From assembly GCA_026710875.1 (NCBI GenBank), contig JAPOQE010000107.1:6208-70207 (forward strand): 64,000 nt of DNA, given 5' to 3'. The notes under the pieces are model-generated. The model saw only the letters and a list, made by a program, of their open reading frames with translations, was not told where the DNA came from and made no database searches. A program made the position numbers and the translations under genes. Every line of letters starts with the position of its first letter. Position 1 is the first letter of the stretch. Below are positions 19,621 through 37,051 of this stretch, piece by piece. The stretch is from Gammaproteobacteria bacterium (GTDB lineage: Bacteria; Pseudomonadota; Gammaproteobacteria; UBA4575).

Positions 19621-19678
19621 GGGCTATGTCCGGTGGTGAAGCTGTGCACTGCTGAATTGCGGCAGCCGGGCAGATCTG

Positions 19679-20683
19679 TCACTTGGCGTTCATCAATGCA
19701 AGTGTCGTATCCAGCATACGGTTGGAAAATCCCCATTCATTGTCATACCAGGAACAGACCTTCACATTGCGACCGCCCATGACCTTGGTCAGGGATGCAT
19801 CGAAGTTGGAGGAATGAGCGTCGTGGTTAAAGTCCACCGATACCAGGGGTGCATCCACATACTCCAGCACGTGCCCATCCGCCGCATCCTTCATTATAGA
19901 ATTGACTTCTTCAACGCTCGTGTCACGGGCTGCCATGAACGTCAGATCGACCAGTGAGACATTGACAGTGGGGACACGAATGGCAAAACCGTCAAGCTTG
20001 CCATTCAGTTCCGGGAGCACCAGTCCTACTGCAGAGGCAGCTCCGGTTTGAGTGGGAATCATCGACATGGTTGCCGAGCGAGCACGCCGTAAATCGGTGT
20101 GGTAGACATCTGTCAGCACCTGATCATTCGTATAGGCATGCACCGTAGTCATCACCCCATTTACCACGCCAATTTTCTCATGCAATGGTTTCACCATCGG
20201 TGCCAGACAGTTGGTAGTGCATGAAGCATTTGAAATGACCGTGTCTTTTGCACTCAACACGTCGTGATTGACACCGTATACAACCGTGGCATCAACGTCC
20301 TGACCTCCCGGTGCAGAAATTATGACTTTTTTCGCTCCCGCGGTTAAATGTCCAGAAGCCTTCTCCTTGCTGGCGAAAAATCCCGTGCTCTCATGCACGA
20401 CATCAACGCCCAGCTCTGCCCATGGAAGTTGACTCGGATCACGCTCTGCGTATACCCGGATACGATCTCCGTTAATGATCATGTATTCCCCATCCACATC
20501 GACAGTGCCATTAAATCTTCCATGTGCCGTGTCAAAACGGGTCAGGTGAGCATTGGTATCTGCATCCCCCAAGTCATTGATTGCAACCACTTGAATTTCT
20601 GTATTGCGTCCCGACTCGTACAAGGCACGCATGATATTCCTGCCTATTCGGCCATACCCATTAATTGCAAGTTTTATAGTCAT
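19679..20683 (-). CDS. gap: glyceraldehyde-3-phosphate dehydrogenase, type I
   Basis: Start trimmed to [15 protein letters not shown] (NAD-binding); active site [12 protein letters not shown]. Confidence 0.9.
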
Positions 20684-20717
20684 TACTTTCTCCGTACTTC
20701 CTTCTAAAACAAAGCCT

Positions 20718-22718
20718 CTATCCGTCAAGCATTCCTAAAGCGTGCTCGACAATATGATCACTTGTAAATCCAAAATGCTGCATTACAGCCTGACCAGGTG
20801 CAGATGCCCCGAAAGTGGAAATTCCGATTGTATCTCCGTCGAATCCCACGTATTTCAGCCAGTAATCCGGAACCCCCGCCTCAATTGCCAGGCGCATGCG
20901 GACAGAATCCGGCAAGACAGATTCCTTGTATGCGTCACCCTGGGCATCAAATACATCTGTACTTGGCATGGAAACAAGACGCACCTTCCTGCCCTGATTA
21001 TTCAGGGCTTCTGCAGCCTGCAGCGCGATTCCCAGCTCTGACCCGGTAGCAATCAGAATGAGTTCTGGAGTTGTCGCACAATCCAGTACTATGTAGCCTC
21101 CCCTGGCAATTTGGGCTACCTGTTCTGCATTTCGCTGTATGAAAGGCAGGTTCTGGCGTGAAAATACCAGGCTGGTCGGTCCGCTAACCCGTTCGATCGC
21201 ATGTTTCCACGCAACCGCCGTTTCAACCGTATCGGCTGGACGCCACACAGACATGTTCGGGATATATCGCAGCGTTGCAAGCTGTTCTACCGCCTGGTGA
21301 GTCGGGCCATCTTCCCCCAGCCCTATCGAATCGTGGGTATACACAAAAATGTTTCTCTGGCGCATCAAGGCAGCCATACGAAGCGCGTTGCGCGCATATT
21401 CGGAAAATACCAGGAAGGTCGCGCTGTACGGGATAAAGCCGCCATGCAGGGCAATGCCTGTATTGATCGCTGACATCCCGAACTCTCGAACACCAAAATA
21501 AATATAGTTTGCAGATGCATGCGTTGCACTTACGGCCACCGACCCGGACCACCAGGTATTGTTGGAGCCAGTCAAGTCCGCCGACCCGCCAATCATCTCC
21601 GGAAGAACATTCGCATACCCTTCCAGTGCAAGCTCCGAGGCCTTGCGCGTGGCAACGGTTTTGCCATCCTCCACCGCTTTCCTGATCACTTGCGTTGATT
21701 CCACGTCCCAGTTCGACGGCAAGTCACCCTGAATTCTTCTGGATAATTCAGCCGCGAGCTGCGGATATTGCTGCTGGTATTGCTTGAATTTATCTTTCCA
21801 CGCCAATTGCTGGTCATTCCCTTTTCCCGTCGCATCCCAGCACCCGTAGACTGATTCCGGGATATGGAAAGGCTCATGCTCCCAGCCAATGGCTGCGCGC
21901 ACCTGTTCAATCTCCTGCTCGCCCAACGGCGCACCGTGTGTGGCTGCCGTGCCCTGCTTGTTTGGCGACCCCCAACCAATCACTGTCTTACAACAAATCA
22001 GAGTCGGGCGTGTGAGTGCGCTTCTTGCGTTTTCAATGGCATTCTTCACCTGCACGGCATCGTGGCCATCGACGTCAGCGATTACATGCCATCCATAAGA
22101 CTGAAATCGCTTCGGTGTGTCATCAGTAAACCAGCCCTCGACTTCGCCATCGATGGATATTCCATTGTCATCGTAAAAGACAATCAGCTTGCCAAGACCA
22201 AGGGTTCCTGCAAGAGAGCACACTTCGTGCGATATGCCTTCCATCAGGCAGCCATCCCCAGTAAATACATAGGTGTAGTGGTCTACAATCTCCAGATCTT
22301 CTTGATTGAATGTCGCTGCCAGAATCTTTTCTGCAAGTGCCATTCCAACGGCATTTGCAAGGCCCTGTCCGAGCGGACCGGTCGTTGTTTCCACACCCGG
22401 GGTATCGCCGTACTCCGGATGACCGGGCGTTCTGGAATGCAGCTGTCGGAAGTTCCTGAGTTCTTCCATGGAAACGTCATAGCCTGTCAGGTGCAACAGT
22501 GAATACAGCAACATGGAACCATGTCCATTGGACAAGACAAAGCGGTCGCGATCCGGCCATGTGGGATCTTTCGGATTGTGCTTCAGATAGTCATTCCACA
22601 GTACTTCTGCGATATCGGCCATGCCCATTGGCATCCCAGGATGACCTGAATTCGCATGCTGCACGGCATCCATGCTGAGTGCACGGATCGAGTTTGCAAG
22701 TTCCTGACGATTTCCCAT
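20718..22718 (-). CDS. tkt: transketolase
   Basis: 666 aa; [24 protein letters not shown] thiamine-PP motif region. Confidence 0.95.
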
Positions 22719-22769: not shown

Positions 22770-22804
22770 ACTCAAATAGAAAGGGTCCTGCTTGCACAGG
22801 ACCC
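22770..22804 (-). terminator. rho-independent terminator downstream of the GPP34-P450 gene
   Basis: Perfect inverted repeat GGGTCCTG-cttgca-CAGGACCC at 22783-22804; on the minus strand it is followed by TTTCTATTT. Confidence 0.6.
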
Positions 22805-23015
22805 GCAATCCCATATCTGGGGGGCGCTATTGTGGAATAGTTGCCTCGTAAGGGCAACAGCTACATGGCAGCGCAACTGCAAAAGTCGGTATGATCGCGT
22901 CTCCTTTTCTGTCATCCCAGCGTGAATATGGGAGACAATCCCTCTTGTGCAGGTAGAACTGTGGCCAGACCTTGTCTATGGGAAAATTCCAGAAATGTAA
23001 TTTCCGCGTTTTGGT

Positions 23016-25025
23016 CTACGCTGTCGCAGCAACTTCGATGGGGTGTCTATACCGTACAACCCGAAACCCGAACTTCTTGCTTGGGCTGAGTTTTGGCAAT
23101 GGATTGATCTTCAGTTTGTAATTAGCAGGGTCCATTTCCAATTCGAGGTGACGGGCAATCAAGAGCAGATTGACAGCCATTTGCAGCTCGGTCCAGCGGG
23201 ATCCTCCGCACATATGCGTCCCGACGCCGAATGGCGCATAAATACCGCTGGCCTGTTTGTGTTCGTTCCGGGGCGGTGTGTACCTATCAATATCAAAAGC
23301 GTCTGGATCCTTGAAATGCTGTTCATCATAATGAACTGATGAAAAGGCCACCAGAACGGTACTGTAGGCTGGTATTTCCATACCCTCGACCTCAAATGCG
23401 TTCATCGCAGTGCGCAGGTGTATCGGTACTACCGGATACCGCCGCAGTGTTTCCATGACAAACCGGCGGGTTACGTCTATGGCGTGCGGGCTGAGATCTG
23501 CCCCAACCGGGTCTCCATCTGCAAATAGTGCATCAGCCTCAGCAGCAATCCGATCCCGCAGATCGGGGTGCATCAACAGCTCATAGATTGCAAAAGCCAT
23601 TGCACTTCCCAGGTAGTGCCCAGCAATTATCGGGGCAATAAATGCGAACCCCATATCGGTTTCCGGCAGGAACTGGGGGTCTGACTGGTGGAGCGCCATC
23701 AGGTCGTCTACCAGGTCCCGCCGCTTGCCCTCCCGTTGCGCGGGCGTATGTGTCGCATGGATTTGGGTATAGAGCTCAAGAACACGCGCATGCGCTCGCT
23801 TCATGGCCGGCGTACGCAGTGTAAACTTCGGTAACATGCGGTATAGATGAACCAGCAGCGCCCGGTATTCAAATTTGATGAGGTCGTCAAGGATATCAGT
23901 AGGTTCGATACTGACGCTGAGCTGTGCGACCTGCTCGCCAATCATTCGCTGGCAAGCATCTTCGCCGGATACTGTCTTCCCGATACCCCATTTGGCGAAC
24001 GCACGCCTGCCAAGATCCAGCACTTCATTCAGCCGATCCTCAACCACTGCACGGGAGTTGCCTGCCTGCACCGCTTTACGCATTCGAAAGTGATCTGCCC
24101 CGTCCAGGCTGGCTATGGACCGTGCGGTTCCCCACTCCTGCTGAAAGTCCTCGAGATAATCCCGAGTGCGCAGATAAAGTCTTCCCTTGTGTCCCACCCA
24201 ACGATTCAACTCCGCACTCGCGAACACGATCATCTCGCGGCCAGGGGCATTGATCTGGAAAATTGGCCCCAACTCCTTGCTTTTCTCCGCTATGAACTTG
24301 GGAATATTACCGGACCGGAAGGTTCGCGAGGCAAGCATGCCAAAAGGTCCGATGACTGGAATCGAGGGCCGCTGCACAGAGCGTATAGCTGAAGGCGGAC
24401 GATAGGAACTGAGTACGGCGGCCCCAATGGTCCGTCCGATTAAATCCATTCCACTGAAGAGCTTGATTCGATCCTCGGCAAGCTCGTATTCCTCTGGCTC
24501 GAGCATTGCACGAATTCCGCCACAGCTATTCATGAGGCCAATAATCGCAAAATCGCGCGGATCCGGAATTTCATCATCAAGCAGTGCACGCATGATTCTG
24601 CTCTTGACCTCTTCTCCAATCTTGCCATCCACAGTGGGGTATCGCCTCGAACGGGCAACCTTCCCCGACAAGGACCAGAATCCCCCGGAGTCCGCATTGA
24701 GCACACCGATTTTGACCAGCCGGTCAAGCGCCATCTCACTGATTTCATCTGAGCGCCGCGCGATGCGCTCCACCCAGTATTGAGGAGAATGTACTCGGGT
24801 ATCCGTCACAATCTCTTCCAGCACAGGGTCCAGGAGCTCATCACCGGTGGGTGTTGGATCGAGCAAGGTAAGCGTTTGCAGGTCCGAGTCGATGCGGTTC
24901 TCCAGGGAGAGGTCGATCAGAACACCACCTGCAAGCACACAGGACAAACTCCACTCGGGAATAGGGATGAAATAGCCCGTCTCCTCATTCAGCAACAACA
25001 AGAGTATTTCTTCAGCAAATCGCAT
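23016..25025 (-). CDS. GPP34/GOLPH3-like domain fused to cytochrome P450
   Basis: 669 aa. N-terminal ~215 aa: L.AEE.LLLLL.EE.G start and DP.PTGDE.LD block typical of GPP34. C-terminal ~440 aa: ExxR (ETLRR), PERF-like FDIDRY, heme-thiolate loop FGVGTHMCGG. Confidence 0.8.
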   Translation of the reverse strand: MRFAEEILLLLLNEETGYFIPIPEWSLSCVLAGGVLIDLSLENRIDSDLQTLTLLDPTPTGDELLDPVLEEIVTDTRVHSPQYWVERIARRSDEISEMALDRLVKIGVLNADSGGFWSLSGKVARSRRYPTVDGKIGEEVKSRIMRALLDDEIPDPRDFAIIGLMNSCGGIRAMLEPEEYELAEDRIKLFSGMDLIGRTIGAAVLSSYRPPSAIRSVQRPSIPVIGPFGMLASRTFRSGNIPKFIAEKSKELGPIFQINAPGREMIVFASAELNRWVGHKGRLYLRTRDYLEDFQQEWGTARSIASLDGADHFRMRKAVQAGNSRAVVEDRLNEVLDLGRRAFAKWGIGKTVSGEDACQRMIGEQVAQLSVSIEPTDILDDLIKFEYRALLVHLYRMLPKFTLRTPAMKRAHARVLELYTQIHATHTPAQREGKRRDLVDDLMALHQSDPQFLPETDMGFAFIAPIIAGHYLGSAMAFAIYELLMHPDLRDRIAAEADALFADGDPVGADLSPHAIDVTRRFVMETLRRYPVVPIHLRTAMNAFEVEGMEIPAYSTVLVAFSSVHYDEQHFKDPDAFDIDRYTPPRNEHKQASGIYAPFGVGTHMCGGSRWTELQMAVNLLLIARHLELEMDPANYKLKINPLPKLSPSKKFGFRVVRYRHPIEVAATA

Positions 25026-25091
25026 GACTCATATCCTGTTTCGAGAACTCGAGACTATTCATTGAAACTGAACACAATGTTTCCAAAAACA

Positions 25092-26165
25092 CTATGCCTG
25101 GACTGATTGAAGGTTACGCTTGGACAGATACCCATCCTGATGCTCAGGATAAAACTGTTCACAATAGCGCCTATAGACAGCAATCTCGCCGTCAGAACGG
25201 CACAGTTGCGGACGGGATCGATAATGCTTCCGACTCCAAATCACCACGTCCTGTAAGACGTCTCGTTTTTGTACCGATATGATGATTTTGCTCATGATTC
25301 TTGTGCGCAAGCCGGCAGGCATGAAACGCATACCAATGATAGGCCGCTTTGGCTTGCGCATTTCCCGTAATTGCCCAACCAGCACCAAGTCAATAAGTGT
25401 TCCATCGACAGGCGTTGCAAGCACCCATAACCTTGCATCCATACCCAGGGTGCGTTCGTAGATCTGCACAAACGAGTAGCCGAGCCCATAGACATGAGCA
25501 ACTGCGGAAACATCGAATATGAAGCTCATGACACCTGCAATCTTTTGGGTTCTTCTGAATTCAAAACAACTTTCTAGACAAGCTCCCTTTACAGATACCG
25601 ATGCCGTCCTACTCACATTGCTGTAACCATGTACATAGCGTAAATGTGCCATATCCACGGCATTCTCAGTGGTTTCCTGGGGATGACCAGGAAACTGCAT
25701 GGATCGAAATTCCAGCTCGCCCCAATCAGGGCCGGTTGGCGGGTCCTCAGGCAGGTGCCACTGAGAAGGCCGCCCATTAGTCCCCCACCAGGCGAAGACG
25801 AGACCAAGAAGTTCCCGTGTCTCAAACACATGCAGTTTAGCGGACTCGGGAGGAGGAGCAAAGGGTGTGGTAACGCATTGGCCACAGACATCGTATTCAA
25901 ATCCGTGAAAGGGACAGACGAGGCAACCGTTACGTACTTGGCCCCCTGCTTCAGGACCCAGCTCTGAACCCATATGTGGACACACTGACTCGGCTACGCA
26001 AATGCACCCTTCATTGTCGCACCAAACAACGATCTGAATACCCAGCCAGGTCTTTTGAATCAGCTTTTCCTTGACTATGGATTTAAGACTGGCCACAAAA
26101 TACCAGCCTTCTGGAAATGGAAAAAGCAAGGAGGAATCACTGCGTTTGGTTTGACTTGCCTTCAT
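25092..26165 (-). CDS. Rieske [2Fe-2S] non-heme iron oxygenase, alpha-only type (KshA/PaO/Neverland-like size)
   Basis: 357 aa; Rieske CPH..x19..CPFH; mononuclear iron motif D-x2-H-x4-H (DMAHLRYVH). Confidence 0.8.
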   Translation of the reverse strand: MKASQTKRSDSSLLFPFPEGWYFVASLKSIVKEKLIQKTWLGIQIVVWCDNEGCICVAESVCPHMGSELGPEAGGQVRNGCLVCPFHGFEYDVCGQCVTTPFAPPPESAKLHVFETRELLGLVFAWWGTNGRPSQWHLPEDPPTGPDWGELEFRSMQFPGHPQETTENAVDMAHLRYVHGYSNVSRTASVSVKGACLESCFEFRRTQKIAGVMSFIFDVSAVAHVYGLGYSFVQIYERTLGMDARLWVLATPVDGTLIDLVLVGQLREMRKPKRPIIGMRFMPAGLRTRIMSKIIISVQKRDVLQDVVIWSRKHYRSRPQLCRSDGEIAVYRRYCEQFYPEHQDGYLSKRNLQSVQA

Positions 26166-26189
26166 TTCTCACCAGATGTCTCATAAGTT

Positions 26190-26224
26190 TGGCAAATCCC
26201 ATTTAGACCATTTGGATTGCCAAA
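26190..26224. promoter_or_regulatory. candidate operator palindrome upstream of Rieske/P450 genes
   Basis: TTGGCAAATCC-n14-GGATTGCCAA inverted repeat plus adjacent CCATGGTACC palindrome, in the 328-bp gap between the RND stop and the Rieske start. Confidence 0.25.
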
Positions 26225-26493
26225 GATACCATATCCATGGTACCAAAAGGCACAGTTCCATAGCAGCGCTATGCAGATTTATTGTAGCGAGTCAGCTAGT
26301 GGGTTACTAATACTCAATCCATTCCGGATGCATCAAAACTTGTCCAAGACTTCGTAGGGCTTCAGAAACTTCCGGGGCCTGTCGTGCAGACCCCGGAGTC
26401 GTGCAAGGACAGGTGATGCCATGAACCTACAGCACCAGACTCAGAGCAAAAGGTCTCACGGTATTGCGCGAGCAGCCTCTAGCTTGAAGTTAT

Positions 26494-29400
26494 TCAGTCA
26501 GCGGGCTGGGGTACAGCCGGGACAGGGGAATCCGCTTCATCATGGCGGATCCTCTTACGCAGATGAATGGCCATCAGCGCAGGTACAACCATCATCAGTA
26601 TCGCCGTCGTTATCATGATCCCGAAACCGAGCGATGCTGCAAAAGGAACCAGGAACTGGGCCTGTATGGCGCGCTCCAGTATGAGAGGCATGAACCCAAG
26701 GAATGTGGTCACGGAAGTGAGAAAAATTGGACGAAAACGCCCCTTGGCACCTTCAATAATCGCGGTTCGGGGAGAGGCCCCTTCGTTGAGCCGCTGGTCG
26801 ATGAAATCGATCATCACCAGAGAGTCGTTCACAACTACGCCGCTCAGGCCAAAACTACCCATGAAGGATGCAGCACTCATGGCAACCCCGAGTACCCAGT
26901 GCCCCAGGATCGCACCAACCAGACCGAACGGTATAACGGCCATGATTATAAACGGCTTGGTATAGGAACGTAGGGGGATCGCCAACAACGCAAATATCAT
27001 GAGCAAGGCGAGCACAAAACCACGATTCAGCGAGTCCAGGGACTCCATCTGCTGCTGTTGTTCGCCTCCAAACGTGTAGGTCAGGTCAGGATAATCCGCC
27101 TCTAGGCCTGCAAGAATTGAATCCGCCAAGATGGTATTGGCTTCTCTGCCGGAGATTACAGTCTGGTCGATATCTGCCGTTATTGTCGCCACACGCTGAC
27201 CGTCTTTGCGTCGAACCGATGGCGGTGAAATGCCTGATTTGAGCCGAGCTACCTGGCTTAACGGAACCTCAGCGCCACCCGGAGTATGGATCAGGTACCC
27301 TTCGATATCAGTGATGGCATTGCGTTCGCTGGCCGGCAGTCGCACATAGACTTTGACTTCTTCGCGCCCTCGCTGCACCCGCAAGGCCTCCGCACCGAAG
27401 AATGCTGAACGGGTTTGCTGGGCCAGTTCTTCAAGTGTGATACCAAGCGTGCGTGCTTCGGCGCGCAACTCAAGCTGGATCTCCCGAATTCCCGGTGAAT
27501 GATCGGAGCGGACGTCAAAGACACCCCCTACACCGCGGAGGCCGCGAACCACGGAATTCGCAATTTCGGCAAGGCGCTCCGTATCCGGGTGCGACAATAC
27601 GGCTTCAACAGGATTGCCAAGATCGATAATCTCTCCGCTGAAAGTGAGGCCCCGGACATAGGGTGGCAAACCCACTTCCTCCCGCCATGCATCCACGACT
27701 GCCCTGGTAGAAAGCTGACGCTGTTGTGCACTCAGCAACTTAAACTCTATGGTGGCAATATTAGCTTCAGGATTCAGTGTGGGTGCAGGTACCAGCCCGC
27801 CCCCTTCAACACGAGGTCCCTGACCGACAATTACGGTTACACCTGAAAGCAAGGAAGGCGCGCCCTCCCCTCGGTCACGCGAAAGTCGTTCGATCACCCG
27901 GTGCCCGGCAGCCTTCAGTTCCCTTGCCACTTCGTACGTTCTTTGTGCGGTCGTTCCATCAGGCATTTCCAGGCTTGCCGTAACAAAATCGCCCTCGACC
28001 ACATCAGCAAACGTTGTCTTCACAATGCCGGCCGGGACCAGGGATACGCAGACGATGAGCAGGCCAATGGCTGCCGAGAACGTAATCACGGGCTCGGCCG
28101 TTGCGTAACGCAGCCCACGATCAAGGGGACCCGCTAGAAACTTGTCTAGCATTCGATCTACAGCGCCCTGGACCCTTGCAAAGAACCGGTCAACAGGACC
28201 GGTTGGCTCCCAATCCGGGCCATGCAGATGAGACAGATGGTTTGGCAGGATCAGCTGTGACTCAACCAGAGAGATCAGCAACATTGCTATGATAATTATC
28301 GGCAACGCACCCCATATTTCCCCGATACCACCCGGAATAAAAAGCAATGGGGAGAACGCAGCCACTGAGGTAAGGACAGCAAAGGTCAAGGGTACTTTGA
28401 TTCGCCGCGCGCCACGGACCGCTGCCACAACACCGGGCGCACCTTGCTTGCGCTCATAATGGATGTGCTCGGCCACGACGATGGCATCATCAACCACGAT
28501 ACCGATGGCAAGAACAAACGCGAACAGGGAGATTGTGTTAATTGCAATATCAAGGGTCAACATGACGGCAAGAGCGCCGATTCCTGAAACAGCCAGGCCG
28601 GCCGCCACCCAAACAGCGAGTCGAATTTCCATAAACAAGGCCAGAGCAATGAATACCAGCAGCAGGCCCAGGGTTCCATTCTTGACAAGGAGATCGACGC
28701 GTTCGGCGTAGGTCTGGGATTCGTCATTCCATATCGTGATACCCACACCATCTGGGAGTGATGGAATGATTACGTTGGCTACGTGTTCCTGTACAGCCGT
28801 CGCGACATCCATCACCTGTTCTCCCTCCGATCGGTATACCTCGACGAAGGCGGCAGGTTGGTTCTGATGTCTGATGATCAGGTCGGTGTCACGGAAACCG
28901 TCACGTACCGTGGCAATCTCTCCCAGACGCACCACGGTACCGTCGTTGCGGCTGAGGATGACGATTTCTTCAAAATCCTGCTGGTCATAGCGCTGCCCGA
29001 GAGTACGCACGCGTACTTGGGCATCATGTGTTTCGATACTGCCTGCTGACAGATCAAGGGACCCATGGCGGATCGTGTTTGCAATGTCGGCCAGGGTAAG
29101 GCCCAAGGCACGAAGGCGGGAGAGTGGTACTTCGATAGAGATCTCGTAATCACGTACACCACTGGTTTCAACTGATGAAATGGCGGGCAGAGAAGCGAGT
29201 TCATCCTCAACCTCGTACGCCAACTCCTTGAGTGAACGTTCAGAGATATTGCCATAGACAAGGAGACGAATGACGCTCTGCCTGTTGGTCATCTCCCTAA
29301 ACTCGGGACGCTCTGCTCCACCCGGGAAGGACTGGATGCGGCCTACTGCAGTCTTGATATCGTCCAATGCACGGCCGATATCCGTGCCAGATTTCAGTTC

Positions 29401-29712
29401 GATTCTGATTGAGGCCATTCCTGGCGCAGCTATCGACTTGACCGTTTTTACATCCTCCAGCGAGTCGACCTGCTCCTCGATCTTCACCACGATCGACTCC
29501 TCCACCTCCTCTGGTGTAGCCCCGGGGTAAGCCATGGAAACTTCCACTGTGTTGAATGGCAGGGTGGGCCAGGCTTCTCGCTCGAGTCCAGTCAACGCCA
29601 CCAGACCGGCCGCCAGTATGGCAAACATGAAGAGATTGGAGGCGACACTATTATTCGCCATATAGGCGATAGGTCCGCCTGGCTCTTTTGGATGACTTGC
29701 GGTGCTGCTCAT
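26494..29712 (-). CDS. RND efflux transporter permease (HAE-type, AcrB-like)
   Basis: 1072 aa, 12-TM RND architecture; TM4 region AIGIVVDDAIVVAEH carries the DD pair of HAE1 pumps, not the D-x3-D-x3-E of HME pumps. Confidence 0.85.
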   Translation of the reverse strand: MSSTASHPKEPGGPIAYMANNSVASNLFMFAILAAGLVALTGLEREAWPTLPFNTVEVSMAYPGATPEEVEESIVVKIEEQVDSLEDVKTVKSIAAPGMASIRIELKSGTDIGRALDDIKTAVGRIQSFPGGAERPEFREMTNRQSVIRLLVYGNISERSLKELAYEVEDELASLPAISSVETSGVRDYEISIEVPLSRLRALGLTLADIANTIRHGSLDLSAGSIETHDAQVRVRTLGQRYDQQDFEEIVILSRNDGTVVRLGEIATVRDGFRDTDLIIRHQNQPAAFVEVYRSEGEQVMDVATAVQEHVANVIIPSLPDGVGITIWNDESQTYAERVDLLVKNGTLGLLLVFIALALFMEIRLAVWVAAGLAVSGIGALAVMLTLDIAINTISLFAFVLAIGIVVDDAIVVAEHIHYERKQGAPGVVAAVRGARRIKVPLTFAVLTSVAAFSPLLFIPGGIGEIWGALPIIIIAMLLISLVESQLILPNHLSHLHGPDWEPTGPVDRFFARVQGAVDRMLDKFLAGPLDRGLRYATAEPVITFSAAIGLLIVCVSLVPAGIVKTTFADVVEGDFVTASLEMPDGTTAQRTYEVARELKAAGHRVIERLSRDRGEGAPSLLSGVTVIVGQGPRVEGGGLVPAPTLNPEANIATIEFKLLSAQQRQLSTRAVVDAWREEVGLPPYVRGLTFSGEIIDLGNPVEAVLSHPDTERLAEIANSVVRGLRGVGGVFDVRSDHSPGIREIQLELRAEARTLGITLEELAQQTRSAFFGAEALRVQRGREEVKVYVRLPASERNAITDIEGYLIHTPGGAEVPLSQVARLKSGISPPSVRRKDGQRVATITADIDQTVISGREANTILADSILAGLEADYPDLTYTFGGEQQQQMESLDSLNRGFVLALLMIFALLAIPLRSYTKPFIIMAVIPFGLVGAILGHWVLGVAMSAASFMGSFGLSGVVVNDSLVMIDFIDQRLNEGASPRTAIIEGAKGRFRPIFLTSVTTFLGFMPLILERAIQAQFLVPFAASLGFGIMITTAILMMVVPALMAIHLRKRIRHDEADSPVPAVPQPAD

Positions 29713-29717
29713 TATTC

Positions 29718-30938
29718 CTAATCGGTCCCGCTGCGAACCTGCATACCTTCAGTGGCGAACTGGATGCCTCCAATGACGACTGCCTGGCCATCCTTGAGCG
29801 CACCAGTGACATAGATTTCAGCATCACCGCGCTGCAGGATCTGTACCGGGACGATACTGATCGTTTGGTCATCACGAATAGTCCATATTTCATTGCCCGA
29901 TTGCAGCGCCAAGCGCGGTACGCGGAAATAGCTTTCTGGTGCAATTCCCCTGATCTCGACCTCCACGAACTTACCTACCAGCAGAGGGGGGCCGTTGTCT
30001 GAATGAGGGGCTGCATTTACCGGAGCACCTGTGGAGAATGGTTCAGGTACACGCACAATCACATCGATGGTTCGTGTCTGCTTGTCAAGCGAGGCTTCAG
30101 CGCGATCGACATGACCGTCCCAGGTATACCTCTGATCACCGTACCGGGCAGTCACACGAGCGGCCACCTGATGTTTGGAATCTCCCGCCTGCAAACTCCA
30201 CAAGTCTGGAATCAAGGCAGTGTTGGCATCAGATAGGGGCACAACCACCTCAACAGAATCGGCGGCAAACAATCGCCCAATGGCCTGGCCGACCGTCAAG
30301 AATTGTCCAATGCCTACCGACTCTTCCCGCACATAGCCATCAAAGGGTGCTTTCACCTTTGTCCGGGACAATGCCAGCCTGGCTTCTGCCACTCTGGCCT
30401 CTTCCCGCTTTAGTGCAGCTTGGGCCGCCTTCAACTGGGGTTCGCGCAGGACCAGGGGACTCGCCTGCTCGACTGTAGACCCTGACTCAAGCTGGCGCCC
30501 GGAGTACTGTTCATATTCAGTTCGCGCGACTGCGGCCAGTTCCTGGGCTTCAAGTAGCCCCACTTTCCGGTCCTCGAAATCGGCCATGGCCTCCCGAAGA
30601 CGGTACAGATAGTCCGCTTCTTCGATTCGAAAGAGTGTCTCATCAGCCTCTACGCGACCCCCACTATGAAAGCTTGGATTTACCCAGACGACTCTGCCAC
30701 TGACCTGGGGAGTAACATCAATTTCTGCACTTGGCCGTACTGTGCCAGCACCGTACACGGGGATCGGCCCGGCACCAGCCGTCACATGAGCTGACTGGAC
30801 AAACGGGATTTGGGGAGGCAGCTCACGGCGTTCCGGTTCAGGGGCCAACGACACCAGAAAGACTGCCAGCACTCCCGCGCCAGCGAGGATGGCCAATGCA
30901 AGCAAGTAACCCCTGAATCTGCTGATGAGACTGTTCAT
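29718..30938 (-). CDS. RND efflux periplasmic adaptor (membrane fusion protein)
   Basis: 406 aa; N-terminal TM anchor, coiled-coil segment, beta-barrel; located between the OMF and RND genes. Confidence 0.8.
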   Translation of the reverse strand: MNSLISRFRGYLLALAILAGAGVLAVFLVSLAPEPERRELPPQIPFVQSAHVTAGAGPIPVYGAGTVRPSAEIDVTPQVSGRVVWVNPSFHSGGRVEADETLFRIEEADYLYRLREAMADFEDRKVGLLEAQELAAVARTEYEQYSGRQLESGSTVEQASPLVLREPQLKAAQAALKREEARVAEARLALSRTKVKAPFDGYVREESVGIGQFLTVGQAIGRLFAADSVEVVVPLSDANTALIPDLWSLQAGDSKHQVAARVTARYGDQRYTWDGHVDRAEASLDKQTRTIDVIVRVPEPFSTGAPVNAAPHSDNGPPLLVGKFVEVEIRGIAPESYFRVPRLALQSGNEIWTIRDDQTISIVPVQILQRGDAEIYVTGALKDGQAVVIGGIQFATEGMQVRSGTD

Positions 30939-30944
30939 ACTGTT

Positions 30945-32471
30945 TTACTCGATAGGTAAGGCTGCCACCTTGGAGTTTGCAGCCTGTGGAGGGTTGCTGA
31001 TTTGTACATTATCTGGATGAGTGTCGATCCACGTGCCACCGAGGGCGCGGTGCAGTGCAAGCCGCATGTAGCCCAGGTCTCGCTCTGCCGCAACGAGTGA
31101 AGTACTCACACTGCTCAGGGTTTCCGAGGCCGCCAGATAGTCATCAAAATCCCCAACGCCAGATCGGTAGCGCCGCTCCTGAAAGGCGGCCTCTGCCCGA
31201 GCTTCCTCAACAGAAGATGTCAGCAAGGCATGGCGATTGTAGCTGGCCTCCAGTTGGGCAAGAACAGTCTCGACCTCATTGACTGCCTCGACCACAGAGC
31301 GCTTATATGCAAAAGCGGCTTCTTTCAGGCGTGACTCTGCAAGGGTTACCTTGTGACGTAATCGTTTGCCCTGCAATGCCGGTCCCGCCAGGTTCAGGGT
31401 CAGATTCTTGAACCACTGAGACGCATTGAACCATTGATCAGTGTCCGAACCCTGCAGCCCGATAGAACCCGACAGCGATAAGGATGGCAGAAGGTCTGCA
31501 CGGCGGGCACCTACCGCATAGCGGGCCGCTTCCATTCGCTGCCACGCTGCACCGACATCGGGGCGCTGAGTAAGAAGATCAGCTGCTATACCTGCAGGAA
31601 CGGGATCGAGTACAACGGGTGCTGAAAAGGAATCAGGTAACATGCCTGCCAGGTCTGCTCGGTACCCTCCCAACAACACCCAGAGTCGTCCCTCGGCATC
31701 CGCCAGCTGACCCCGGATCGCTGGCAACTCGGCCTGCGAATTCCACAGCTTCAGCCGTGCCGTGTAGAGCTCACGCGCAGTGTTCAACCCACGATGGTAT
31801 CGGGTTGTGGTGAGTTTCTCACGATCTTGCAGGACAGCCACAATATTATCCAGCAACCCAAGATGGCGCCGGAGATGCGTAACTTCAATATACGTATGTA
31901 TGGTTTGCGCAATGATCCCTATACGGGCAGCACGGTAGTCCCACTCAGTAGCCAGATGCTCTGCACGGACAGCATACGCATCATTGCGGTTGCGATTCCA
32001 GAAGTCAGCTTCATACGAAAAGTTTGCACTCAAGGAATAGGTCGTGACCCCGAGTCTGTCCGGTACAGCGATGCCAAACTCCTGTTTGAGTTCCGGGCTC
32101 AGCCCGATCTCTTCAATTTGCTCGCCGATGCCGGCATTGGTAGGAGAATCCGTTTCTTCCACCCCTGCCGATGGCTGCAGCTCAGGGTATCTTACTGCGT
32201 TTGCAATGCGCGCTCGGGCCCGGGCTTGCTCAACACGAGCGACTGCTTCTGCAAGGTCAAAGTTCGAAGCCAGTACAGTTTCAATCACTTGGTCAAGCGC
32301 CGGGTCATTGTATGCTTTCCACCACTCCAGTGACTCGTAGGACTTGGCTACACCATCACCAGTGAATTTCTCGGGCAATTGGGGTGCTGGCTCAGGCGCC
32401 GGCAGGATTGAGTATTGTGAACACGCAGATAGCAGGAATCCAATTACGACAGATATCAGCACCACTTGCAT
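30945..32471 (-). CDS. efflux outer-membrane factor lipoprotein (NodT/TolC family)
   Basis: Start trimmed to MQVVLISVVIGFLLSAC (lipobox LSAC); two TolC-like repeats; the ORF's 61-aa N-terminal extension is unlikely to be translated. Confidence 0.8.
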   Translation of the reverse strand: MQVVLISVVIGFLLSACSQYSILPAPEPAPQLPEKFTGDGVAKSYESLEWWKAYNDPALDQVIETVLASNFDLAEAVARVEQARARARIANAVRYPELQPSAGVEETDSPTNAGIGEQIEEIGLSPELKQEFGIAVPDRLGVTTYSLSANFSYEADFWNRNRNDAYAVRAEHLATEWDYRAARIGIIAQTIHTYIEVTHLRRHLGLLDNIVAVLQDREKLTTTRYHRGLNTARELYTARLKLWNSQAELPAIRGQLADAEGRLWVLLGGYRADLAGMLPDSFSAPVVLDPVPAGIAADLLTQRPDVGAAWQRMEAARYAVGARRADLLPSLSLSGSIGLQGSDTDQWFNASQWFKNLTLNLAGPALQGKRLRHKVTLAESRLKEAAFAYKRSVVEAVNEVETVLAQLEASYNRHALLTSSVEEARAEAAFQERRYRSGVGDFDDYLAASETLSSVSTSLVAAERDLGYMRLALHRALGGTWIDTHPDNVQISNPPQAANSKVAALPIE

Positions 32472-32920
32472 GGCGCACCATCTGGATCGATCGAATTGTT
32501 GTGAAACGGTTGCCCGTGCGGTTATGCGAATCTCACGCAGCAGCCGCTCGCTCTGGACCACCACAGGACTACCTCCTACCTGCACTGAGTCGACAGCGCA
32601 GTCTTCCAGCTCTGCCAACATGCTGTGATCCGACTCGATCATGCTGGTGTTCATGACGCAACATCATATCAAAATCCCACCTGTCACGATGATGCAGCTC
32701 AAAGGGATTCTATGCCTCAGGGCATCGTGCTGCAGCACCTGTTCGGATTGTACAGCAGCCGGGAATCAGCTATTGGAACTCATAGAAAGTTTTTGAAGGG
32801 CATCAGGGCATCAGCCCGCCTTCTAACCCTCCATGCAACGCGACACTGATGCCTTGTGTGTCTCGGTGATGACTGTGCCTGTACTCTTTAACTGCGGGCC
32901 GTCTGTAGCCTGTCAAGCAA

Positions 32921-33478
32921 CTATTCTTTCCACTTGATGTTGCACCCCACACTGGGCGTCTGGTCGGGGTCAATCTCTTGGCCTGCAAGCAAAGCATCCA
33001 GAGCTCCTCGAAGGTCTGCGCCGGTCACAGGAATGTCATTTCCAGGCCTCGAGCCGTCCAGCTGCCCCCGGTATACACACTGCAGTGCCTGGTCAAAGAT
33101 ATAAAAATCAGGCGTGCAGGCTGCGTCATACAGCCTTGCAACCTGCTGGGTCTCGTCGTACAGGTAGGGAAAAGTGTACCCAAGGGACTTGGCAAGCGCC
33201 TTCATGTTTTCCGGTGAATCCTCGGGATATTCGACCGCATCGTTGGAGCTGACAGCAATCAGCGAAACCCCTTGGGAAGGGTACTCCTGGCCCAGCCTGA
33301 CCAGCTCGTCCTGGATATGCTTTACAAAGGGGCAATGGTTGCATATGAACATGACAACGGTCGCGATCTCTCCGCGCACGTCCGACAGCCACACTTCTTT
33401 CCCGGAAACCGTATCTGGCAGGCAAAAATCCGGAGCTGACGTACCCAAGGGCATCATGTTGGAGGGTGTCAGTGCCAT
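32921..33478 (-). CDS. thioredoxin-fold redoxin (AhpC/TSA-TlpA-like thiol:disulfide oxidoreductase)
   Basis: 185 aa; APDFCLPD and redox-active CNHC in a thioredoxin-fold context; no obvious signal peptide. Confidence 0.65.
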   Translation of the reverse strand: MALTPSNMMPLGTSAPDFCLPDTVSGKEVWLSDVRGEIATVVMFICNHCPFVKHIQDELVRLGQEYPSQGVSLIAVSSNDAVEYPEDSPENMKALAKSLGYTFPYLYDETQQVARLYDAACTPDFYIFDQALQCVYRGQLDGSRPGNDIPVTGADLRGALDALLAGQEIDPDQTPSVGCNIKWKE

Positions 33479-33581: not shown

Positions 33582-34754
33582 ATGCCTGCAATGCGTGCTT
33601 TCACCTCCGAGTCTGTTTCCGAAGGACACCCGGATAAAATGGCAGATCAGATTTCTGATGCAGTGCTTGATGCTTTACTGGAGCAAGACCCTGACGCGCG
33701 CGTGGCGTGTGAAACACTTGTGAAAACAGGCATGGTCCTGCTGGCCGGGGAGATTACTACCGCTGCTTACGTGGATCTTGACGCTCTCGTGCGGCGTACC
33801 GTCAATGAGATCGGCTATGACCACTCCCGGATCGGCTTTGATGGAAATACCTGTGCAGTCATCAATGCATTGGGTAAACAGTCGCCGGATATCGCTCGCG
33901 GGGTTGACCGCAAGAACAAGGAGGATCAGGGTGCAGGAGACCAGGGCATGATGTTCGGTTATGCCTGCGATGAAACCGATGTACTCATGCCAGCGCCAAT
34001 CACCTATGCACACCGTTTGGTGCGAAAACAGTCCATGGTCAGGAGAGAAGGCAAACTGCCCTGGCTGCGCCCGGATGCCAAAAGTCAAGTGACCTTCGTG
34101 TATAAGGATGGAGGCCCCAGCCACATTGATGCCGTAGTCCTCTCCACCCAGCATGACCCGGATGTCACCCAAGATGAACTGCATGAAGCGGTAAGGGAAT
34201 TGATCATCAAACCGGTACTGCCGGGAAAGTGGCTGACGTCTGACACGAAAGTCCACATCAACCCCACGGGTCGTTTCGAGACGGGAGGCCCCGTGGGAGA
34301 TTGCGGACTGACCGGACGAAAAATCATCGTGGACACTTACGGTGGCATGGCCCGTCATGGCGGAGGCGCCTTTTCCGGAAAGGATCCTTCCAAAGTCGAC
34401 CGCTCTGCTGCGTATGCGGGGCGTTACGTCGCCAAGAACGTAGTGGCTGCCGGGCTGGCAAAATGCTGTGAAATTCAGATCTCCTATGCCATTGGCCTGG
34501 CCCAGCCGACCTCAATCTCGGTCAACACCTTCGGCACCGGGACCCTGTCCGATGACAAAATTGAAGCCATTGTGTGCGACATGTTTGACCTGTCACCGTA
34601 CGGAATTCTGTCCATGCTGGACCTGCTTCATCCGATCTACCAGGCGACGGCCGCCTATGGGCATTTCGGTCGCAACGAGGACAGCTTTCGCTGGGAACGC
34701 ACGGACAAGGTCGGTGAGCTGAAGGAGCGGGCCGGACTTGGTGCGATGGTATAA
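33582..34754 (+). CDS. metK: S-adenosylmethionine synthetase
   Basis: 390 aa; [31 protein letters not shown] motifs. Confidence 0.95.
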
Positions 34755-36100
34755 TGCCGAAAACCGACAGGATGCCTGAAAAGATCATGAGTATTCAATC
34801 TGCGCAGGACGTGGAGCCTGACTTCAAGGTTGCTGACCTGGCACTTGCTGACTGGGGACGCAAGGAAATTGCCATCGCCGAAACCGAAATGCCGGGCCTG
34901 ATGGCCTTGCGTGAAAAATACGGAAATGAAAAACCACTGGCAGGTGCACGTATTGCCGGCTGTCTGCACATGACCATACAGACTGCGGTACTGATTGAAA
35001 CTTTAACAACGCTGGGTGCACAGGTGCGCTGGTCATCGTGCAACATATTTTCTACACAGGATCACGCGGCAGCCGCCATCGCCGCCACGGGTGTGCCTGT
35101 ATTTGCCTGGAAAGGTGAAACTGAACAGGACTATATGTGGTGTATCGAACAGACGATCAATGGGCCTGGAGGCTGGCAGCCGAACATGCTTCTTGATGAT
35201 GGCGGTGACCTGACCAAGGTCATGCACGAAAATTTTTCGAAAATACTGGGTAAAGTACGTGGCCTGTCCGAAGAAACCACGACCGGCGTGCACCGCCTGA
35301 TGGAAATGGAAAAAAGGGGTGAATTGAAAGTCCCTGCATTTAATGTGAACGATTCTGTCACCAAATCCAAGTTTGACAACCTGTATGGTTGCCGTGAATC
35401 ACTGGTCGACGGTATCAAGCGTGCAACGGACGTCATGATCGCGGCTAAAACCGTCGTTGTATTTGGCTTTGGAGATGTGGGCAAGGGCAGTGCACAGTCC
35501 TTGCGCAGCCTGGGTGCGAATGTCCTGATCACAGAAATCGATCCTATCTGCGCATTGCAAGCCGCGATGGCAGGTTTTCGGGTGGTCACCCTGGATGAGG
35601 TTGTCTCAACGGCAGACATCTTTGTCACTGCCACCGGCAACTATCATGTGATCAGTCATGACCATATGCGAGCCATGAAAAATCAGGCCATCGTCTGCAA
35701 TATCGGACATTTCGACAATGAAATTGATGTGGAGAGCCTCAAGCAGTATCCCTGGGAAAATATCAAGCCCCAGGTCGATCACGTCATCTTCCCAGATGGA
35801 AAACGCATCATACTTCTGGCAGAAGGCCGCCTTGTAAACCTGGGATGTGCCACTGGGCACCCGAGCTTCGTCATGTCAAATTCATTCACGAATCAAGTGC
35901 TTGCACAAATTGAATTGTGGGGAAACCCAGGCCGCTATAAAAACCGCGTGCATGTACTGCCCAAGTCACTGGACGAGGAAGTTGCCCGGCTGCACCTGGA
36001 AAAAATCGGCGCCAAACTGACCCAGCTTACTGGCGAGCAGGCGGAGTATATTGGAGTCGACGTGAAAGGGCCCTACAAACCCGATTACTATCGGTATTGA
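34754..36100 (+). CDS. ahcY: adenosylhomocysteinase
   Basis: 448 aa; KVADL.LA.WGR, NAD-binding [11 protein letters not shown] overlaps the metK TAA (TAATG). Confidence 0.9.
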
Positions 36101-36128
36101 ACCGGGCGCCACCCCCGCCCCTGCTGCC

Positions 36129-36887: not shown

Positions 36888-37051
36888 CCTTGTATGCATG
36901 CCTGATTACTGGGTTTGCACCCGCAGGCCAATCCGCGCGTCAATATTCATTCCTTTCTTCAGTTTCCAAGCAGTACCGCTGACTCCCGAATTGGAATATC
37001 AACGAGGATGGTATCCTGTAGGCACATGACACAAACGGGACATATCTTGCG

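Follow-up and report, generated by a model that had tools for sequence, protein, structure and literature searches.

A putative sponge-symbiont module that links a GPP34–P450 fusion and a Rieske oxygenase to an RND exporter

What do two oxygenases and a tripartite exporter do side by side between tkt and metK in a gammaproteobacterial genome? We addressed this question in a window of 64,000 nucleotides (the whole stretch of DNA that was analysed, from contig JAPOQE010000107.1) and in related loci elsewhere. Our reading, to which we assign roughly even odds (a probability of about 0.5) on sequence evidence, is that the island may be the minimal form of a horizontally exchanged sponge-symbiont module that oxidizes sterols or related triterpenoids and pumps them out. 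As a unit, the module appears to be undescribed; the fusion protein alone has already been published.

Gene content of the island

Six co-oriented minus-strand genes lie between tkt and metK in the window, encoding a redoxin, an outer-membrane factor (OMF), a periplasmic adaptor (MFP), an RND permease, a Rieske oxygenase and a GPP34–P450 fusion. The features are as follows.

20718–22718, minus strand: tkt, one flank of the island
22783–22804, minus strand: intrinsic-terminator-like hairpin, then UUUCUAUUU; 212 nt beyond the P450 stop and ahead of tkt
23016–25025, minus strand: GPP34–cytochrome P450 fusion, 669 aa, MCY4420737.1 (Pfam GPP34 117 bits, aa 4–190; p450 131 bits)
23019–24368, minus strand: P450 domain, about aa 220–669, with the heme-ligand Cys606 at 23208–23210 and the I-helix AGHYLGS at aa 468–474
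24456–25016, minus strand: GPP34 (GOLPH3-like) domain, aa 4–190 (PF05719), aligning to human GOLPH3 residues 62–274
25092–26165, minus strand: alpha-only Rieske non-heme-iron oxygenase, 357 aa, MCY4420738.1 (Pfam Rieske 59.6 bits, KshA_C 86.3 bits)
26166–26493, minus strand: 328-bp non-coding gap between the RND and Rieske genes, with a weak hairpin at 26472–26455
26494–29712, minus strand: RND inner-membrane permease, HAE1-like, 1,072 aa (ACR_tran 518.8 bits)
29718–30938, minus strand: periplasmic adaptor (MFP), HlyD-type, 406 aa (TIGR01730 145 bits, cut-off 94.9)
30945–32654, minus strand: OMF, OEP/NodT-type lipoprotein with a lipobox (TIGR01845 253 bits, cut-off 210)
32921–33478, minus strand: AhpC/TSA-family redoxin (Pfam), 185 aa, with a CNHC motif
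33582–34754, plus strand: metK, the other flank

The initial annotation had described a co-oriented minus-strand run between tkt and metK, and the gene coordinates and domains agree with it. It counted nine genes where we found six; at least nine are reached only if tkt, gap, pgk and the further glycolysis genes downstream of the island are included. The clean intrinsic terminator that it placed at 22783–22804 was recovered as a hairpin (22804–22783) with a 9-bp stem and a U-rich tail, folding at −25.1 kcal/mol (z = −3.2 versus shuffles). It was also right that no regulator gene lies beside the pump: the gaps of the island are free of ORFs, whether for a regulator, a ferredoxin or anything else. 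A single transcript from 33478 to 22800, for which it proposed a test, is doubtful, given the 328-bp gap with its weak hairpin and a 266-bp gap between the redoxin and OMF genes. The latter would widen to about 449 bp with an OMF start at Met62 (32471), which is probably the true start, giving MQVVLISVVIGFLLSAC. The OMF, MFP and RND genes are tightly packed, with gaps of 5–6 bp, and the 328-bp gap is likely to be a separate promoter region for the Rieske–P450 pair; relatives keep a spacer of at least 225 bp at this point, with no conserved sequence. Sequence composition did not differ between the island and its flanks, and no tRNA genes or flanking repeats were found at the island.

The redoxin, previously taken to belong to the module, is conserved only in the window's own clade (L001, L002, L004, L005 and L068) and is probably a lineage-specific neighbour, not part of the module. 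An AhpC-TSA/DsbD_N gene beside the Rieske gene in Acidobacteriota has no relation to it beyond the superfamily. The proposal of a complete tripartite RND exporter held, with the domains of all three components confirmed: an ACR_tran permease of about 12 hydrophobic segments, an adaptor with an N-terminal membrane anchor (hydrophobic segment at aa 8–35) and a NodT/TolC-type OMF are adjacent, and the Asp pair of HAE1-type systems is kept. The best PDB matches of the permease are MdtB and AcrB-like pumps. Its best equivalog score was 411 bits against NF033617 (cut-off 1,250), and all named multidrug equivalogs (AcrB, MdtB/C, OqxB and others) were far below cut-off, so it was assigned to none of them. 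The suggested comparison with HpnN/BstA was rejected, because the permease scored 21.9 bits against HpnN (versus 1,100) and 18.6 bits against MMPL (cut-off 20.5).

In the Rieske oxygenase, the two motifs of an alpha-only enzyme noted earlier (CxH/CxxH and D-x2-H-x4-H) are intact, as C62/H64/C83/H86 and the mononuclear-iron ligands D171/H174/H179. The cut-off for its KshA_C domain is 23.3 bits, and its best PDB match is KshA (4qdc, E = 6e-24) over the N-terminal ~165 aa only. A comparison with SdmA had also been offered, and orthology was rejected at 32.8 bits against NF052579 (cut-off 600). No KshB-type reductase or ferredoxin gene was found in the island; elsewhere, an FNR-4Fe4S reductase gene lay within about 8 kb in only seven loci, and no steroid-catabolic genes were seen beside the Rieske gene in the inspected loci.

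The fusion is a member of GPP34_L: a single ORF with an N-terminal PF05719 and a C-terminal PF00067 domain and full-length similarity to other fusions. Full-length relatives in more than 120 clusters (64–94% identity, 97–100% coverage) all carry both domains, and dozens more 50%-identity clusters comprise fusions of 655–690 aa. The AF2 model of the window's protein has a pLDDT of 85.3, and neither a signal peptide nor a TM helix was predicted in it. The heme loop FGVGTHMCGG and the ExxR motif of the P450 are both in place and do not vary within the family. The best sequence matches of this domain are bacterial CYP51s (E = 1e-26, with only ~240 C-terminal residues aligned), and the family I-helix reads AGHY(T/L)GS, with an invariant Tyr, versus AGHHTSS in bacterial CYP51s. 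We rejected CYP51 orthology because only the C-terminal half aligns and the signature AG(Q/H)HTS is missing. Standalone relatives of the P450 scored best, though weakly, against sesquiterpene oxygenase models.

The GPP34 domain matched the GOLPH3 structure 3kn1 (E = 2e-4), and a profile of 121 fusions aligned remotely to GOLPH3, at 39.8 bits. GOLPH3 R90, R171 and R174 correspond to A32, D93 and S96 in the window's domain. Among the 121 fusions, the position of R90 is Ala in at least 90%; across the family, R171 is matched by D/E93 and R174 by S/N/G96, and two HMM-based alignments agree. Along with R90, we take R171, R174 and W81 to be residues of the GOLPH3 PI4P pocket; the counterpart of W81 in the fusion is ambiguous (P23 or W25). 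In GOLPH3, the mutation R90L abolishes PI4P binding (PMC5170606). A GOLPH3/Vps74-type basic PI4P pocket is therefore not predicted for this domain, and because the homology is remote we hold the loss of the PI4P arginines with moderate confidence.

Linkage of the fusion and the pump across genomes

The linkage of the Rieske–P450 pair to this RND system in related genomes, a point raised by the initial annotation, was found in both search directions and across phyla. A forward scan recovered 80 species-level genome loci with the fusion from at least six phyla, nearly all of them sponge-symbiont MAGs as judged by MAG names that point to sponge studies, with the caveat that L017 ('Plut_') may come from coral. 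An RND orthologue (64–88% identity) lay within 10 kb of the fusion in 62 of these loci (49 of the 57 with full flanks), an MFP gene was present in 47 and an OMF gene in 43. A KshA_C-type Rieske gene occurred in 52, and in 34 it immediately precedes the fusion on the same strand. In the reverse scan, which ran an RND profile against metagenome loci, a full-length GPP34–P450 gene stood beside 26 of 34 RNDs of at least 64% identity, versus 0 of 46 below 60% (Fisher p = 2.4e-14). The module takes about 48 gene orders; in 32 loci the RND gene is convergent, and in 20 it lies upstream in the same orientation. Because so many arrangements hold the same gene set, proximity is kept without a shared operon; co-orientation and a single-operon layout are specific to the window's lineage.

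All six GTDB species genomes recovered from the window's clade (1.85–2.1 Mb; L001–L005 and L068) contain the module. Across phyla, identities were 64–74% for the P450, 66–80% for the RND orthologues, in which the proton-relay residues D407/D408 are invariant, and 77–95% for an FAD enzyme found in other genomes. The window's copy resembles those of Binatia and Gemmatimonadota (70%) more closely than those of the gammaproteobacterial Pseudohongiella (63–65%). Judging by these sequence comparisons, the module has probably spread horizontally among sponge-associated bacteria of many phyla. RNDs of at least 64% identity form a tight orthogroup; every contig that yielded one can be traced to, or is presumed to come from, a sponge metagenome. 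The pump of L107, from the LXNI series, is 98% identical, and the sister series LXNJ is labelled Petrosia ficiformis (PMC10070321); L162 carries a Robbins-2021 sample label. Going by the names of MAGs and contigs, the hosts of the module are symbionts of Aplysina, Petrosia, Ircinia, Rhopaloeides and Coscinoderma. This tie to sponge symbionts, like the earlier publication of the fusion, had escaped the initial annotation.

The proposed sterol connection and its alternatives

Sterol C-24 methyltransferase (SMT) genes with a Sterol_MT_C domain (53–87 bits, cut-off 21.7) were present in 19 of the 80 genome loci, including L003, whose 2.1-Mb genome belongs to a relative of the window organism, and in 12 of 34 high-identity metagenome loci. 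In the Binatia locus L008, the order is Rieske, GPP34–P450, FAD oxidase, SdmB-like (306 bits), SdmA-like (a second Rieske; 417 bits, NF052579 cut-off 600), three SMTs and the oxidosqualene cyclase OSC (375 bits). The FAD enzyme, of the amine-oxidase fold, is another module gene in other genomes, and its closest homologue with a solved structure is the polyketide amide oxidase LkcE. The window itself has no SMT, SdmB-like, FAD-oxidase or reductase gene, and with the L003 SMT as query no match was listed from a chromosome nearly identical to the window; the sterol link here thus rests on orthologous modules elsewhere. The earlier claim of sterol or triterpenoid oxidation and export therefore gains indirect support from the SMTs, the Binatia cluster, the KshA_C domain and the CYP51 likeness, and its substrate stays presumptive.

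We propose that the soluble KshA_C-type Rieske enzyme and the P450, both O2-dependent, would work from the cytoplasm, against the membrane's inner face, with ferredoxin or reductase partners presumably encoded elsewhere. The N-terminal GPP34 domain, homologous to a lipid-binding peripheral-membrane protein of eukaryotes, would dock the P450 on the membrane or present lipid to it, standing in for the TM anchor of eukaryotic P450s rather than serving as a secreted PI4P-binding effector; the remote GOLPH3 alignment counts against this putative tether. The HAE1-type RND–MFP–OMF pump would expel the oxidized, more polar product across both membranes. Elsewhere, the same core is joined by SMTs, the FAD enzyme and an SdmB-like dehydrogenase, or sits inside a de novo sterol cluster. 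In this scheme we infer the substrate, the reaction order, the GPP34 role and whether the sterol comes from host or symbiont. We regard as doubtful the bolder idea that the module hands modified sterols, symbiont-made or host-derived, from symbiont to sponge, with the Rieske enzyme and GPP34–P450 oxidizing, SMTs (where present) methylating the side chain and the dedicated pump exporting. If it were true, the products could be oxysterol- or steroid-like signals to the animal, paralleling the Rieske-then-P450 entry into ecdysteroid and dafachronic-acid synthesis, or alternatively a source of the unconventional 'sponge' sterols central to the 24-isopropylcholestane biomarker debate.

Could the neighbours simply have met by chance, an ordinary drug pump beside two unrelated oxygenases? 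The 328-bp gap that parts pump from oxygenases in the window and the want of a shared regulator would fit, but this is effectively refuted by the two-way linkage across phyla (p = 2e-14), by some 48 rearranged yet clustered gene orders and by the 46 RNDs below 60% identity that never had a fusion neighbour. A more serious competitor, which we nevertheless consider unlikely, is detoxification (phase I plus efflux), in which the two oxygenases hydroxylate non-sterol sponge or symbiont metabolites (terpenoids, polyketides, brominated alkaloids) and the RND pump expels them. Four features favour it and also count against the sterol reading: an RND that scores as a generic multidrug HAE1 type, standalone P450 relatives that score best against terpenoid (sesquiterpene) oxygenase models, an LkcE-like FAD enzyme and a window without a sterol gene. 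However, the module spans symbionts of chemically very different sponges, which favours a substrate that all sponges share; the 66–80% RND identity across phyla points to one conserved substrate and not to broad specificity; and the genes that recur beside the module (SMT, SdmB-like, SdmA-like and OSC) are anabolic and tailor sterols.

In the published view (Ferreira et al. 2025, PMC11706023), the GPP34 protein is secreted as an effector; by binding host PI4P it would stop phagosomes from maturing, and the P450 is an accessory without an assigned role. In its favour, eukaryotic GPP34 acts as a PI4P effector, some fusion copies have ankyrin-repeat genes in their vicinity, and the fusion is reported to occur in sponge symbionts alone and to be expressed, according to A. 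aerophoba metatranscriptomes (PMC11706023). We nonetheless find this role highly improbable: there is no signal peptide and, in the loci inspected, no secretion-system gene nearby; A, D/E and S/N/G replace the three GOLPH3 arginines; and the P450 retains all of its catalytic motifs and depends on heme and on redox partners from the bacterium. The tight linkage to a Rieske enzyme, a flavoenzyme, SMTs and a small-molecule pump is unpredicted by the effector model, RND pumps export small molecules, and neither RND nor efflux is mentioned in PMC11706023. Coupling of the fusion to a pump and oxygenases thus challenges the effector idea. We give equally little credence to steroid catabolism, in which a KshA-like ring hydroxylase and a CYP125/142-like side-chain oxidase would start the breakdown of host sterols for carbon: no KstD, Hsa, FadD/E, Mce4 or KshB genes occurred in any inspected locus, the partner is an exporter and not an importer, the neighbours (SMT, SdmA-like, SdmB-like) are biosynthetic, and the host genomes are reduced (1.85–2.1 Mb).

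Comparison with known systems

GPP34_L fusions of sponge symbionts have been described alone (Ferreira et al., Microbiome 2025, PMC11706023), in a study that reports P450 genes near short GPP34 genes and says nothing of Rieske, RND pump, FAD enzyme or SMT neighbours. They share with the window's protein the two-domain architecture, 64–94% identity to many fusions and a sponge-associated source; the published role is that of a secreted effector, whereas the evidence here points to an intracellular metabolic one. Sterol clusters of sponge symbionts (Kelly et al. 2022, PMC9531527; Brown et al. 2023, PMC10070321) share their hosts and phyla with the module, spread horizontally, have SMT and SdmB-like neighbours and are physically contiguous with the module in Binatia. 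By contrast, they have a true CYP51 (~31% identical to yeast ERG11, E = 1e-70), a true SdmA, OSC and ERG24, none of which is in the window, whose P450 and Rieske enzymes are distant paralogues of their counterparts. Neither study describes an exporter.

In BstABC/HpnN (Zhai et al. 2024, PMC10942540), too, an RND-superfamily transporter is genetically linked to genes that tailor sterols or triterpenoids, and the outward movement of cyclic triterpenoids would be analogous to the job proposed here. BstA/HpnN, however, are RNDs of the MMPL/HpnN type, which cooperate with a periplasmic binding protein and bring lipid to the outer membrane, whereas the window's pump is of the AcrB/MdtB-like trimeric type with MFP and OMF and would expel its substrate from the cell.

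With KshA/KshB, the Rieske enzyme shares the alpha-only architecture, the Fe-S and Fe(II) motifs and the KshA_C domain; it differs in having no adjacent KshB-type reductase and in its non-catabolic gene context. In animals, the Rieske enzymes Neverland/DAF-36 and the Halloween/DAF-9 P450s act successively on sterols at the entry to steroid-hormone synthesis; these are eukaryotic membrane enzymes, and their likeness to the module is one of analogy only. From bacterial CYP51 (for example, that of Methylococcus capsulatus), the fusion is set apart by an invariant Tyr in place of the second signature His, an unrelated N-terminal substrate-recognition half and the extra GPP34 domain. The pump has the three components, the OMF–MFP–RND order and the proton-relay Asp pair of AcrAB–TolC and MdtABC, but its RND lies below every equivalog cut-off and belongs to an orthogroup of its own, at an identity of at least 64%.

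An island of two oxygenases and a tripartite pump

Six minus-strand genes lie between tkt and metK, not the nine consecutive genes of the initial annotation.

Features of the island and its flanks in the window
20718-22718, minus strand: tkt (flank)
22804-22783: hairpin, credible terminator (dG -25.1 kcal/mol, z -3.2)
23016-25025, minus strand: GPP34 + P450 fusion, 669 aa (NCBI MCY4420737.1)
25092-26165, minus strand: Rieske + KshA_C oxygenase (NCBI MCY4420738.1)
26494-29712, minus strand: ACR_tran permease (RND)
29718-30938, minus strand: RND adaptor (MFP)
30945-32654, minus strand: NodT-type outer-membrane factor (OMF), likely true start Met62 (32471)
32921-33478, minus strand: AhpC/TSA redoxin
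33582-34754, plus strand: metK (flank)

The OMF, MFP and RND genes are spaced by 5-6 bp. Between the pump and the Rieske gene there is a 328-bp gap, in which no sequence conservation among relatives was found; the distance from the Rieske gene to the fusion is 66 bp. The mechanically called OMF open reading frame includes a 61-aa N-terminal extension; because a lipoprotein signal and lipobox (LLSAC) follow Met62, its sequence indicates that the gene probably starts at 32471. Both the P450 heme loop and the ExxR motif were found in the fusion. Other earlier observations on the island held up on re-examination, namely the terminator at its end, the Rieske signature (CxH/CxxH plus DxxHxxxxH) and the lack of a regulator gene next to the pump: the gaps of the island contain no regulator, ferredoxin or reductase genes. 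The two oxygenase records derive from a Gammaproteobacteria metagenome-assembled genome (MAG), and the island proteins are 97-99% identical to those on a 1.87-Mb MAG chromosome (locus L001).

The island interrupts a housekeeping block (13945-22718, with amt, fba, pyk, pgk, gap and tkt, and 33582-38008, with metK, ahcY, an RNA methyltransferase gene and gshB). We detected no mobile-element signatures at the island (no tRNA, flanking repeats or compositional step), and no tRNA genes or Rfam matches across the whole 64 kb window. Two minus-strand open reading frames, at 38157-38729 (190 aa) and 39611-40156 (181 aa), had no Pfam match at E <=1e-6; the rest of the stretch is housekeeping.

Linkage of the fusion, the Rieske oxygenase and the pump

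The window P450 gene is a member of a published family. Ferreira et al. 2025 (PMC11706023) named the same architecture 'GPP34_L' and reported that it is monophyletic, occurs exclusively in sponge symbionts and is expressed in situ. Their text makes no mention of RND or efflux genes, and a Rieske domain appears only in a rare alternative fusion with GPP34; a rare fusion to an ABC ATPase is also reported. We found more than 1,600 homologues of the fusion, of which the best 120 (64-94% identity) all have both domains at full length. Clustering at 50% identity yielded dozens of separate fusion clusters, down to around 30% identity, so the family exceeds these top matches; it includes a second paralogue class (40-47% identity), sometimes in tandem. 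Two genes of different classes (around 65% and 45% identical to that of the window) occur together in some symbionts (loci L161/L162:8891-18678, L100 and L102), either convergent around a FAD enzyme or in tandem. Some relatives of the P450 domain carry other extra domains (clusters P0371, P0295, P0373 and P0398), such as the cNMP-binding/CRP-like regions at the C-terminus of a 739-aa protein.

When one genome per GTDB species was scanned, 80 loci with the fusion were recovered, and their isolate names point to sponge-microbiome studies. The loci belong to Gamma- and Alphaproteobacteria, Acidobacteriota, Binatota, Gemmatimonadota and Latescibacterota. One locus, L017 (JAAXHV010000174.1), has the isolate name 'Plut_88898', which suggests a MAG from the coral Porites lutea; in that case, the fusion might extend beyond sponges.

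The window proteins were searched against the 80 loci with tblastn, whose counts were used because a simple ORF caller selected some antisense frames in GC-rich loci. In 62 of the 80 loci, the fusion has an RND permease (64-88% identity) no more than 10 kb away; among the 57 loci whose flanks reach 8 kb or more on each side, the number is 49. Searches for the remaining genes found the MFP in 47 loci, the OMF in 43 and the Rieske oxygenase in 52, in 34 of which it is directly upstream on the same strand; altogether, 74 of the 80 loci contain the RND, the Rieske oxygenase or both. For the reverse search, metagenomes were scanned with a profile built from 11 RND orthologues of different phyla (80% mean column identity; the proton-relay residues D407/D408 are invariant). 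A full-length GPP34-P450 lies beside 26 of the 34 RNDs with at least 64% identity, the failures being mostly on short contigs. It is found beside none of the 46 RNDs below 60%, which also lack a neighbouring Rieske, sterol C-24 methyltransferase (SMT) or FAD enzyme (Fisher p = 2.4e-14 for fusion linkage); one of these 46 loci is, by its label, from a sediment metagenome. Chance adjacency of the pump and the oxygenases is thus effectively excluded, and the link between the Rieske-P450 pair and this RND system, which the initial annotation had drawn from a single island, extends across genomes.

The 34 high-identity loci have contig names LXNI, LXNJ, MKWU, JGI and Ga02. Only two sources could be traced to sponge hosts through PMC10070321: LXNJ to Petrosia ficiformis and JGIcombinedJ30088 to Aplysina aerophoba. 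The pump of L107, on a contig of the LXNI series (a sister of LXNJ), is 98% identical to that of the window.

Around 48 gene orders were observed; the pump is convergent in 32 loci, and in 20 it lies upstream in the same orientation. Because gene order is so variable, the conserved feature is proximity rather than an operon. The exact arrangement in the window occurs only in its own clade of 1.85-2.1 Mb genomes, one of whose six members, L003, has a rearranged island. The redoxin and the tkt/metK flanks, too, are confined to this clade (L001, L002, L004, L005 and L068), and the redoxin, which had been counted as part of the module, is therefore only a neighbour. In Acidobacteriota, an AhpC-TSA + DsbD_N protein is encoded directly upstream of the Rieske gene (L162:7877-8770, also L044, L062, L065, L076 and L080). 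We rejected the redoxin as a recurrent accessory, as this protein is unrelated to that of the window beyond the superfamily (BLASTP E 0.057); a thiol-redox neighbour has therefore appeared twice independently.

Other neighbours are restricted to particular groups. In gammaproteobacterial loci (L041:7620-8732, and L022, L029, L036, L037, L050 and L071), the Rieske gene is immediately preceded by two conserved open reading frames of 121 and 243 aa, neither of which matches Pfam. In seven Porisulfidus and Chromatiales loci (L010, L014, L020 and L023-L026; for example, L023:16289-17407), around 8 kb or less separates the fusion from the gene of a BenC/MmoC-like FNR reductase, which has a 4Fe-4S domain at its C-terminus and is a candidate redox partner. 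Between the intact GPP34-P450 and the RND, two loci (L163:12068-14989 and L164:12068-14786) contain fragments that resemble CMAS/SMT (139-154 aa), GPP34 (57 aa) and p450 (257 aa). These look like a decayed second copy of the fusion and an SMT, which suggests ongoing gain and loss within the module.

The window P450 shares 70% identity with those of Binatia, Gemmatimonadota and Latescibacterota and 74% with that of one alphaproteobacterium, and 63-65% with those of the gammaproteobacterial Pseudohongiella; across phyla, identity is 66-80% for the RND and 77-95% for the FAD enzyme. These values fit repeated transfer within the sponge niche, a pattern like that reported for symbiont sterol clusters (Kelly et al. 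2022, PMC9531527). Having moved across at least six phyla inside one host niche, this metabolic module is a clear case of modular transfer.

Sterol context and a proposed role of the GPP34 domain

Clustering of all open reading frames of the loci revealed further recurrent neighbours. SMTs with a Sterol_MT_C domain are present in 19 of the 80 genome loci; for the 34 high-identity metagenome loci, the figure is 12. A protein of the FAD amine-oxidase fold, with LkcE as its best solved homologue, recurs in 24 loci, mostly immediately downstream of the fusion, and 7 loci encode a dehydrogenase that resembles SdmB (306 bits to that model). The Binatia locus L008 contains, in order, the Rieske, GPP34-P450 and FAD oxidase genes, an SdmB-like gene, a second, SdmA-like Rieske (417 bits), three SMTs and an oxidosqualene cyclase; there, the pair sits within a de novo sterol cluster of the kind described by Brown et al. 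2023 (PMC10070321). The rearranged island of L003, from a close relative of the window organism, also includes a bona fide SMT (87 bits).

The oxygenases themselves lean weakly toward sterols in sequence. The module Rieske has a KshA_C domain and KshA as its best solved homologue; its identification as SdmA was rejected (32.8 bits to the SdmA model). The best sequence matches of the P450 are bacterial CYP51s (E 1e-26, C-terminal half only), and its I-helix, AGHY(T/L)GS, resembles the AGHHTSS of bacterial CYP51. Standalone P450 relatives match sesquiterpene oxygenase models weakly. The AlphaFold2 model of the fusion reached a pLDDT of 85.3 with 121 sequences (52.7 with 16), and Foldseek searches of the PDB could not tell P450 families apart. 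Because the window contains no SMT, SdmB-like, FAD-oxidase or reductase genes, we infer the sterol assignment for its organism from the orthologous modules; a search with the L003 SMT listed no match on a window-clade chromosome, a weak hint that none is encoded elsewhere in its genome.

Few gene families are reported as exclusive to sponge symbionts, and for this one the sole published explanation is a phagosome-blocking effector: a secreted GPP34 that binds host PI4P and blocks phagosome maturation (PMC11706023). We compared the domain with GOLPH3 in two HMM-based alignments, using phmmer to PDB 3kn1 and 9qpq and a 121-fusion profile against GOLPH3 residues 62-274 (39.8 bits); a MAFFT --add --keeplength placement was left out because its distal half was misaligned. 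In both, R90 falls at Ala32, a position occupied by Ala in no fewer than 90% of the fusions, R171 at D/E93 and R174 at S/N/G96, with W81 ambiguous. In GOLPH3, R90L abolishes PI4P binding and Golgi localization (PMC5170606). The fusion has no signal peptide or transmembrane helix, requires heme and bacterial redox partners, and neighbours a small-molecule pump rather than a protein-secretion system. Together with the fusions of GPP34 to Rieske and ABC ATPase domains, these features are a better fit for a domain that docks membrane-active enzymes on a membrane or lipid substrate than for a secreted effector. Tied to Rieske, pump and sterol-tailoring genes and lacking the PI4P arginines, the fusion can be recast as part of a putative lipid-modifying and export pathway.

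In the pathway that we propose, the Rieske oxygenase and the membrane-docked P450 would oxidize a lipid of the cytoplasmic membrane, either a sterol or a related cyclic triterpenoid, the SMT, FAD enzyme and SdmB-like enzyme of richer variants would add tailoring, and the dedicated tripartite RND pump would expel the oxidized product. We give this reading even odds (around 0.5). It retains the earlier proposal of lipid oxidation and export, of which the linked pump, Rieske, P450 and sterol neighbours indirectly support the framework and the probable substrate is drawn from genomic context.

Comparison with known systems

We found no paper on a conserved Rieske + GPP34-P450 + RND (+ SMT/FAD) module; the fusion is known, and the conserved module appears to be new. 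If its substrate is a sterol, the module would provide an export route for bacterially modified sterols, a missing piece of the sponge biomarker debate, and the gene set is short (four to six genes) and open to heterologous expression. The Rieske is KshA-type by domain content, with the KshB partner and catabolic context absent. The pump, a bona fide HAE1-type tripartite system, falls outside every named equivalog. The proposed function resembles that of Bst/HpnN (PMC10942540) in combining sterol tailoring with export, but the module uses a different class of RND.
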